Under the pieces are notes generated by a model that made no database searches, was not told the origin of the DNA, and was given only the letters and a program-made list of their open reading frames with translations. Below are positions 38,560-39,493 of a stretch of DNA of 54,871 nucleotides, in pieces. The DNA is from Candidatus Cloacimonadia bacterium (lineage in GTDB: Bacteria > Cloacimonadota > Cloacimonadia > JGIOTU-2 > JBNGDW01), in the NCBI GenBank assembly GCA_049975325.1, contig JBNGDW010000001.1:1-54871 (forward strand), read 5' to 3'. A program made the translations under genes and the position numbers. Each line of letters begins with the position of its first letter. Positions within the stretch are counted from its first letter, which is position 1.

Positions 38560-38823
38560 ATGGATGAAGATTGGGTAATAATATTTCACGCAAGCGGAGA
38601 GACAGAAGGGTACCTAGTAAAAGGAAAACTTGAAGATAGCGGCATCCCTGTAAGACTGTCTCAAGAGGCTATTGGAAAAATTTCTGGTCTAACATTGAAC
38701 GGTTTAGGAGATGTAAAAGTCCTTGTTCCTGCTGACTACAAAGAGAAGGCAAAAAATATATTAGAAAAAGCAATGAATAATGAAAAGGGAAAAGGGAAAA
38801 GGGAAAAGGGAAATGAGGAATAA
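38560..38823 (+). CDS. DUF2007-like small protein (putative signal-transducing fold) with a repeat-encoded Lys/Gly/Glu tail
   Basis: GGGAG RBS upstream. The pattern ..EGYLVKGKLEDSGIPVRL....VKVLVPADYKEKAKNILE fits DUF2007. The last ~14 codons lie in the (AAAAGGG)4 repeat. Confidence 0.5.
   Translation: MDEDWVIIFHASGETEGYLVKGKLEDSGIPVRLSQEAIGKISGLTLNGLGDVKVLVPADYKEKAKNILEKAMNNEKGKGKREKGNEE
38783..38810 (+). repeat. Perfect tandem heptanucleotide repeat (AAAAGGG) x4, plus a partial copy, inside the 3' end of the DUF2007 CDS
   Basis: Read directly: aaaaggg aaaaggg aaaaggg aaaaggg aaa. Confidence 0.95.
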
Positions 38824-38885
38824 ACCACAAGCACCAATGCCCGAAATGCAAAACAGTCAAGCCAAAAAATGTTGGGAACTTGTAT

Positions 38886-39047
38886 GGAGTGCAACAACCG
38901 TGTTGTTGCATGCAAAATCACCCAGTAGAATAAGAAATCAGATTCTACAGGGCAAGCGGATTTTGCACTCCAAAAGGCGGATAGAATTTTGGACAAATTT
39001 GCCTGCCCCGTAAGGAGTGAAGCGACTGTACGGGGAAATTTGTTTGT
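38886..39047 (+). ncRNA. Candidate structured RNA (3'-UTR-derived or independent): four or five consecutive or nested helices ending in a terminator-like hairpin
   Basis: Helices: GGAG 38886-89 with CTCC 38968-71. TGCAACAAC 38890-98 with GTTGTTGCA 38902-10. TGCAAAATC 38911-19 with GATTTTGCA 38959-67. GTAGAAT 38925-31 with ATTCTAC 38942-48. CCAAAA 38970-75 with TTTTGG 38987-92. CCCCGTA 39006-12 with TACGGGG 39029-35. Confidence 0.3.
39006..39047 (+). terminator. Terminator-like hairpin (7 bp GC-rich stem, 16 nt loop) followed by a T-rich run
   Basis: ccccgta-N16-tacgggg followed by aaatttgtttgtt. The loop is long and the U-tract is interrupted, so this is weak. Confidence 0.3.
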
Positions 39048-39084
39048 TAGAATTTGTTTATTATTTGATATTTGTTATTTGCGA

Positions 39085-39100
39085 TCCGCCAGTTGGCGGA
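39085..39100. repeat. GC-rich 16-nt palindromic motif, copy 2 (TCCGCCAGTTGGCGGA)
   Basis: Read directly. 7-nt inverted arms around a GT centre, in AT-rich non-coding DNA. Confidence 0.8.
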
Positions 39101-39106
39101 GAATTG

Positions 39107-39204
39107 TTTCCTGTCTCCTGTTTCCTGTCTCCTTTTCTCCTTTTCTCCTTTTTTCCCTTTCTTCCAGTCTCCCCGTCTCATCTTTTTTCCTGCTTCCATT
39201 TTCC
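39107..39204 (+). repeat. ~100 nt polypyrimidine tract built from short direct repeats (TTTCCTGTCTCC x2, TTTTCTCC x2, and others); purine-rich with 12 GGA motifs on the - strand
   Basis: Read directly. It is immediately followed by a polypurine stretch (39207-39250), centred on the TTCC-GT-GGAA palindrome at 39201-39210. Confidence 0.9.
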
Positions 39205-39273
39205 GTGGAAAGAAAAAAATTGAAGAAAAAACTTGAGAGGGAACTTTGGGAATGATAAATTTGGTTTCAAATC

Positions 39274-39459: not shown

Positions 39460-39475
39460 TCCGCCGGCTGGCGGA
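39460..39475. repeat. GC-rich 16-nt palindromic motif, copy 3 (TCCGCCGGCTGGCGGA)
   Basis: Read directly. Differs from copy 2 only at the two positions flanking the centre. Confidence 0.8.
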
Positions 39476-39493
39476 TAAAATCATTTTTCCTTA

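Follow-up and report, generated by a model that had tools for sequence, protein, structure and literature searches.

The closest described relatives of the locus reported here are the palindromic repeats of Escherichia coli and Pseudomonas. In E. coli, REP units lie side by side in the intergenic mosaics named BIMEs (PMC3333891), and in Pseudomonas fluorescens SBW25 two short inverted palindromes form a REPIN, a single long hairpin with a spacer (PMC3116915, PMC3337134). Such repeats are tied to transposases of the RAYT type, and the presence of a REP type on the flanks of a RAYT gene is the defining REP-RAYT relationship (PMC2817692, PMC3333891, PMC3337134). No paper linking RAYTs or REPs with the Cloacimonadota was found in the literature searched.

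The window analysed here is a stretch of 54,871 nucleotides from a Candidatus Cloacimonadia bacterium (assembly GCA_049975325.1, contig JBNGDW010000001.1). A segment of about 160 nt downstream of its DUF2007 gene had been singled out, from the sequence alone, as a candidate novel structured RNA with a built-in alternative helix. The core of this segment is repeated, modular, intergenic and alike on both strands, its stems covary and it is associated with RAYT genes in relatives. We put the probability at roughly 0.85 that it belongs to a REP/REPIN-type repeat system, an ordinary type of DNA, selfish or domesticated, found here in an unusual lineage.

Helices and folding of the segment

Direct reading of positions 38885-39047 recovered all the helices listed in the original prediction, namely the 9-bp hairpin at 38890-38910, the 9-bp stem formed by 38911-19 and 38959-67, the 7-bp hairpin enclosed by it at 38925-48, the 6-bp hairpin at 38970-92 and the GC-rich hairpin at 39006-47 (Table 1). 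The closing stem, listed as 4 bp (GGAG/CTCC), is present and is 5 bp long (TGGAG/CTCCA). The inner hairpin stem pairs GTAGAAT (38925-31) with ATTCTAC (38942-48) and is prolonged by CCC/GGG past an A.A mismatch, while in the GC hairpin CCCCGTA (39006-12) pairs with TACGGGG (39029-35), the tail being AAATTTGTTTGTT.

Table 1. Features of the segment and its surroundings, with positions in the window.
Feature	Position	Strand	Sequence and remarks
Module A	38826..38865	+	CACAAGCACCAATGMCCGAAATGCAAAACAGTCAAGCC; 13 copies in G000, fixed order/orientation relative to PAL and CT tract
Family-1 element, long-form REPIN-like copy with insert in loop 2	38885..38972	.	Covariance model R1: 70.6 bits (+), 65.1 bits (-)
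Closing stem, 5 bp	38885-89 with 38968-72		TGGAG with CTCCA; read from sequence
Hairpin 1, 9-bp stem, REP hairpin with conserved CGT loop	38890..38910	.	TGCAACAAC-cgt-GTTGTTGCA
Hairpin 2, 9-bp stem, REP hairpin	38911..38967	.	TGCAAAATC (38911-19) with GATTTTGCA (38959-67)
Nested family-2 hairpin	38921..38957	-	Minus strand reads GCTTGCCCTGTAGAAT...ATTCTACTGGG
Small hairpin, right flank of family-1 element	38970..38992	+	CCAAAA (38970-75) with TTTTGG (38987-92)
Free-standing family-2 GC hairpin	39001..39035	+	GCCTG-CCCCGTA-(16 nt)-TACGGGG
Module T, GT-rich	39047..39084	+	TTAGAATTTGTTTRTTATTTGATATTTG; 7 copies in G000, many in relatives
PAL, 16-nt palindrome, third REP-like family	39085..39100	.	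TCCGCCAGTTGGCGGA; 30 BLAST matches in G000
CT-rich tract	39105..39200	+	74% complementary to GA-rich tract 38783-38813 (I1); 55 BLAST matches in G000

The segment folds beyond chance. RNAfold gave -57.2 kcal/mol for 38880-39055 as compared to -40.2 +/- 3.9 in 200 dinucleotide shuffles (z -4.33; 0/200 as good), and the opposite strand folded as well or better (z -5.62 against its own shuffles), so that both strands did better than the shuffled controls proposed with the original prediction. Since both strands fold well, the pairing stems from palindromes in the DNA and carries no strand specificity. Rfam searches at gathering thresholds returned 0 matches in the window, in line with the earlier failure to recognise tmRNA, RNase P, SRP or 6S signatures; at E values of up to 10 only chance-level matches appeared, the best being frnS at 20.7 bits (threshold 60).

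The family-1 element

The core of the family-1 element is 52 nt long and reads TGGAG, a 9-bp hairpin with the loop CGT, a 9-bp hairpin with the loop ACG, and CTCCA. The two REP hairpins (21 nt each) are inverted with respect to each other, their loops being mutual reverse complements, and are clamped by the conserved TGGAG/CTCCA stem; they adjoin in a three-way junction that has no unpaired junction nucleotides. In the window copy the ACG loop of hairpin 2 is split by a nested module. Another family of the same order has the same 52-nt architecture with different stems (TGAAAAAAC/GTTTTTTCA, TAAAACAAC/GTTGTTTTA, TGCAACATC/GATGTTGCA).

A covariance model (R1) built from six copies located the element in 17 of the 23 genomes of the order, with copy numbers that range from 1 to about 50. 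In most genomes the number is 1-8, and the window's own assembly (G000; 1.70 Mb in 159 contigs, 90.6% complete and broken at repeats) has about 5. One genome, G002, has about 50 (101 R1 strand-matches); many of these matches are identical to one another and many lie where contigs end, which indicates a recent burst. Across the phylum family 1 is patchy (13/91 genomes). An exact-pattern scan of 185,579 species genomes yielded many Cloacimonadota MAGs as well as other phyla, and the matches confirmed by R1 outside the phylum were in MAGs labelled Stahlbacteria, WOR-3, Marinimicrobia, Armatimonadota and Elusimicrobia; the number of pattern matches left unconfirmed by R1 is close to what chance would yield for 18 fixed bases, roughly 17. 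Everywhere looked at, the R1 scores of the two strands are near-equal, within a few bits, because the loop CGT reads as ACG on the opposite strand.

Alignment A2 comprises 130 strand-matches in 127 distinct rows, with most elements counted on both strands. Standard pairs occupy 94.0% of its cells; the share falls to 76.9% when columns are shuffled and to 35-63% when partners are slid, and both-side changes occur at 20 of the 23 pairs. The feet (TGGAG/CTCCA, paired in 90.6% of cells) and the loops are nearly constant and the stems covary. A search for homologues with compensatory mutations had been suggested as a check on the candidate RNA; related genomes do carry homologues, and their stems show many such changes. 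However, compensatory changes are equally expected for hairpins of single-stranded DNA.

Repeat modules in the genome

When compared with the window's own assembly by BLAST, the region 38826-39240 falls into modules found on more than 25 contigs. The modules recur on other contigs in differing combinations and orientations, each sub-segment giving partial matches of its own. The paralogue at G000:C9:11691-11742 is 52 nt long and consists of two 9-bp hairpins between TGGAG and CTCCA and nothing else, the inner 36-nt hairpin and the GC hairpin both being absent. A GC-type hairpin lies inverted inside the hairpin-1 loop on C154, C69 and C2, a truncated GC hairpin (family 2) stands alone on C33, and on C105 and C21 the flanking modules occur without any hairpin element. 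Flanks resembling the CCAAAA/TTTTGG hairpin also follow the copies on C9 and C4, and the exact module has 1 BLAST copy.

Six family-1 sites were found in this assembly: 4 complete or module-interrupted copies, a hairpin-2 half on C4 and a hairpin-1 half on C69. All 6, and the truncated family-2 copy on C33, are intergenic (between ORFs of at least 100 aa), and the sole ORF that overlaps a copy is a spurious one reading through the repeat. The idea of a single structured RNA of about 160 nt is not supported by this comparison, as its modules are also found apart from one another, in both orientations and in different settings that are dispersed and non-syntenic. Very probably the segment consists of small palindromic repeats of the REP/REPIN type, assembled into a BIME-like mosaic and set in a larger cassette that fills the 1-kb spacer after the DUF2007 gene. 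The original prediction is partly supported in that the structure is conserved, as a REP/REPIN-type DNA repeat mosaic.

The surrounding cassette and the DUF2007 gene

Positions 38768-39262 form one copy of a larger intergenic cassette that is present in at least 13 copies in G000 (e.g. C8:11450-11900, C154:1680-2130, C69:200-600). The order of its parts is constant: a GA-rich stretch 'gcaatgaataatgaa..gggaaa', a CA-rich stretch, module A, an optional hairpin element with module T, the palindrome TCCGCCAGCTGGCGGA, a CT-rich tract and a TTGACA promoter-like end. With the order fixed and the hairpin element optional, this census of modules makes the predicted segment an optional insert within the cassette. 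The palindrome PAL (TCCGCCAGCTGGCGGA) occurs in the window at 39460-39476 as well as at 39085-39100, and on C8 (11575-11690), C12, C41 and C52 it forms doublets around an AT-rich palindromic spacer, the classical REPIN layout. The GA-rich and CT-rich tracts form the closing helix in folds of 38770-39205; as these ends are imperfectly complementary, a single long hairpin results when the whole cassette of about 400 nt is folded.

The last ~17 codons of the DUF2007 gene (..AMNNEKGKGKREKGNEE*) and its stop codon lie inside the cassette (38768-38823), and the string 'gcaatgaataatgaaaa...gggaaatg' also precedes module A at other, non-coding copies. Judged from the sequence, the C-terminal tail of DUF2007 appears to be supplied by the repeat. 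The family-1 element lies 62 nt past the stop codon in the sense orientation of the DUF2007 gene, and the next gene starts about 870 nt downstream.

Family-2 hairpins and their nesting

Sequence comparison of 39001-39035 with the reverse complement of 38921-38957 gave the common frame GCYTGCCCYGTA...TACNGGG, and the family-2 frame can be written as GCYTG-CCCYGTA-(variable)-TACNGGG. The pattern GCYTGCCCYGT N8-38 ACRGGG matched at 39001-39035 and in 14 of the 23 genomes of the order and its reversed control in 0. The family is multi-copy and has several subfamilies with covarying inner stems. One 47-nt variant (GCTTGCCCTGTGTAATCCACGAAGTGGTGCAAAGCAATTACACAGGG) is identical or has 1-2 differences in five species-level genomes of two genera (G013, G012, G022, G005, G011).

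The 'four nested helices' on which the original prediction dwelt are the outcome of a family-2 hairpin nested in loop 2 of a family-1 element. Long-form R1 matches elsewhere carry family-2-type and other small hairpins, inserted either into the CGT/ACG loops or between hairpin 1 and hairpin 2 (L134, L126, L078 in both loops, L102, L013), and those at L134, L126, L078 and L013 have other modules at the same hairpin-2 loop position as the window insert. At least 5 different inserts are seen in family-1 loops (the window, C154, L134, both loops of L078, L013). The family-1 loops look like preferred insertion points, with survivorship bias as the alternative.

A bolder proposal, which we consider doubtful, is that family-2 hairpins are mini-elements that home into the 3-nt apical loops of family 1 (at C^G of CGT/ACG), a form of 'REP-in-REP' hyperparasitism. 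If true, such homing would imply a single-stranded DNA transposase that targets an extruded hairpin loop. No family-2 motif was found beside the RAYT gene at 20 sampled RAYT loci, and a comparison of RAYT-model matches with family-2 coordinates gave no consistent co-location.

Association with RAYT transposase genes

In a related genome, R1 copies flank a 181-aa ORF (G015:C61) at distances of 24 nt on the upstream and 27 nt on the downstream side, and the same arrangement occurs at G006:C22 and G015:C56; at all three loci (L063, L064 and L065) no more than about 35 nt separate R1 copies from one end of the ORF or from both. The R1-flanked ORFs score 93.4 and 85.5 bits against the NCBIfam model NF047646 'REP-associated tyrosine transposase' (cut-off 80) and match Pfam Y1_Tnp and the E. 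coli TnpA-REP structure (PDB 4ER8, E 2e-9). Homologues of 50-78% identity, some of them frameshifted, are bracketed by R1 at five further loci (L081, L095, L098, L110, L130), two of them from Stahlbacteria MAGs and one from an 'Armatimonadota' MAG. This brings the R1-bracketed RAYT loci to 8, MAGs of other phyla included. As a specificity control, RAYT loci of other subfamilies were inspected and the R1 element was present at 0/24; the best-scoring of these loci have different REPs of their own, e.g. GTGTCATGGA....TCCATGACAC.

G015 has two cognate RAYT copies with 78% identity. In G000, 90.6% complete and broken at repeats, tblastn found no match to the cognate RAYT; the only NF047646 match is a frameshifted or truncated pseudogene of another Y1 type, fused to a DnaA-C-terminal-like HTH region (C36:6440-7245), and an IS200-type gene is located on contig C94. 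As the assembly has no cognate RAYT and loop 2 is disrupted, the window copy is most likely an immobile relic.

Four loci, L081 (Stahlbacteria E44_bin36), L110 (Armatimonadota bin.262), L098 and L095, combine a REPIN-like element with a cognate RAYT at 56-67% identity. The occurrence of the RAYT-REPIN pair in other candidate phyla, together with its absence from most Cloacimonadota families, suggests horizontal transfer or mis-binning. As part of the bolder proposal above, the family-1 system may have passed, along with its RAYT, from one candidate phylum to another. In a separate observation, five genomes of family f3 in the same order (G012, G005, G015, G013, G018) have 11-17 RAYT-model matches each, which is unusually many; numerous f3 RAYTs are intact ORFs of 180-230 aa, and different subfamilies are flanked by different REP types.

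Alternative readings

Were the segment a structured non-coding RNA (a multi-copy sRNA or a 3'-UTR element), its three-way junction would work at the RNA level and the RAYT link would be secondary. Strong covariation, a fold better than shuffles and the position 62 nt after the stop codon in DUF2007 sense orientation would all suit this explanation, but both strands are equally good in fold and in R1 score, and the element has no promoter-like site of its own upstream, no terminator-like GC hairpin and no Rfam relative. Dispersed, non-syntenic contexts, a copy-number burst in one genome (G002) and the specific bracketing of a transposase gene are further points against an RNA gene. RNA-library contigs do cover the window element and its paralogues; they are, however, unstranded Logan contigs, many of them tens of kb and some up to 92 kb in length, which makes DNA carry-over likely in RNA-labelled runs.

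The region is contained in public oil-field runs, in which some contigs lack parts of it. One joint skips the 36 nt of the nested hairpin, which the C9 paralogue likewise lacks, and another skips 51 nt, the GC hairpin being missing from the C9, C4, C105 and C21 paralogues. Because the joints match paralogous copies without the 36-nt and 51-nt modules, they give no sign of RNA processing. In public DNA runs the contigs at the window locus end at the repeats, so that neither a transposition event nor an empty orthologous site was seen, and one 360-nt contig merely reproduces the locus. Taking both sides together, we hold the RNA gene to be improbable. In an rRNA-depleted metatranscriptome (unstranded contigs) the summed contig depth peaked over module A (38822-38863), reaching about 1300-2600 where lpxB had about 275, a pattern that fits many transcribed copies.

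The main role of the hairpins, and the one for which they were selected, might instead be to terminate the DUF2007 transcript or to stabilise its 3' end. They are positioned just downstream of the stop codon, a T-rich stretch follows the GC hairpin, and REPs are known to stabilise upstream mRNA (PMC2817692, PMC3333891). Yet a scan for intrinsic terminators (GC stem, short loop, immediate U-run of at least 5 of 8) called only 39085-39100 (+) and 38843-38828 (-) and nothing at 39006-39047, where the GC hairpin has a 16-nt loop and a tail that starts with AAA. The same modules, moreover, are found in both orientations relative to neighbouring genes, and some paralogous cassettes are wholly without them. 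Selection for this role is very improbable; under the repeat reading, any present effects on the DUF2007 mRNA (3'-end protection, pausing or termination) would be a by-product.

The switch-like behaviour proposed for the segment, in which GGAGTGCAA/TTGCACTCC would compete with hairpins 1 and 2 as in a riboswitch or attenuator, is largely refuted. The alternative 9-bp pairing does exist in the window copy (inverted-repeat search, I12), because both hairpins begin and end with TGCA; it lengthens the closing stem through the TGCA that starts hairpin 1 and the TGCA that ends hairpin 2. It is not conserved, however: over the 127 distinct A2 rows this extension is paired in 64% of cells with no compensatory change, a value under that of the column shuffles (500/500 as high), and its two variable positions are unpaired in 50/101 and 79/97 sequences. 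Since the junction has no unpaired nucleotides there is no unpaired core of the ligand-binding kind, nor is there an expression platform upstream of a regulated gene, the next gene being about 870 nt away. A regulatory switch is hardly credible on these grounds. An integron attC site, considered for its hairpin-after-gene layout, was rejected on account of the misfit to the R'/R'' consensus by eye, the core-gene neighbours and the dispersed copies.

Discussion

By analogy with E. coli TnpA-REP and the IS200/IS605 elements, the cognate RAYT would bind family-1 hairpins as single-stranded DNA. It may then cut beside the conserved foot of the element, after which copies would spread. Such a mechanism would explain covarying stems with fixed loops and feet, and equally an element that is alike on both strands and present in 1 to about 50 copies per genome.

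The REP/REPIN-RAYT system reported here is previously undescribed in Candidatus Cloacimonadota and neighbouring candidate phyla, and recognising it removes a false lead, as the segment is not a new riboswitch or sRNA. These repeats account for the fragmentation of MAGs at intergenic regions and appear to supply the 3' end of at least one gene, in the form of the DUF2007 tail. With loops and foot fixed and stems freely covarying, family 1 also offers a compact natural test case for hairpin recognition by RAYTs. We regard the nesting of hairpins across families and the cross-phylum distribution with RAYT as moderately interesting. The nesting merits specialist attention, as do the RAYT-like genes of the sister family, of which a genome can have as many as 17.

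Like the REPINs of P. fluorescens SBW25, the family-1 elements consist of two short inverted palindromes with complementary ends, are extragenic and dispersed, keep their pairing as the sequence varies and bracket a HUH/Y1 RAYT of ~180 aa, with one REP type per RAYT subfamily (PMC3116915, PMC3337134). Whereas Pseudomonas REPINs are single long hairpins with a spacer, the family-1 hairpins abut in a three-way junction held by a 5-bp clamp; their copy number is low (1-8) in most genomes, with about 5 in G000, far fewer than for classical REPs, and they span several candidate phyla. The cognate RAYT is missing from the G000 assembly, while G015 has two.

The intergenic mosaic, in which palindromic units alternate in orientation and are interspersed with other conserved motifs, resembles the E. 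coli REP/BIME arrangement (PMC3333891), and the RAYT of the relatives is homologous to TnpA-REP (PDB 4ER8, E 2e-9). The sequence itself is unrelated to E. coli REP: TGGAG/CTCCA replaces the GTAG foot and the family-1 stems are AT-rich. A GC-rich stem downstream of a stop codon with T-rich sequence near it is shared with Rho-independent terminators and 3'-UTR stem-loops, but here there is no immediate U-tract, the loop measures 16 nt, and copies of the hairpin are found in either orientation and also within other hairpins. As with the REP-targeting insertion sequences (IS1397, ISPpu9/10 and others; PMC1525189), REP hairpins receive other repeats, here at the apical loop; unlike IS1397 and ISPpu9/10, the inserts in the nested copies observed, for which survivorship bias is possible, are non-coding hairpins of 23-37 nt with no transposase. 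In E. coli BIMEs the units stand side by side, whereas in the present mosaic the loops of one hairpin family contain hairpins that belong to a different one.
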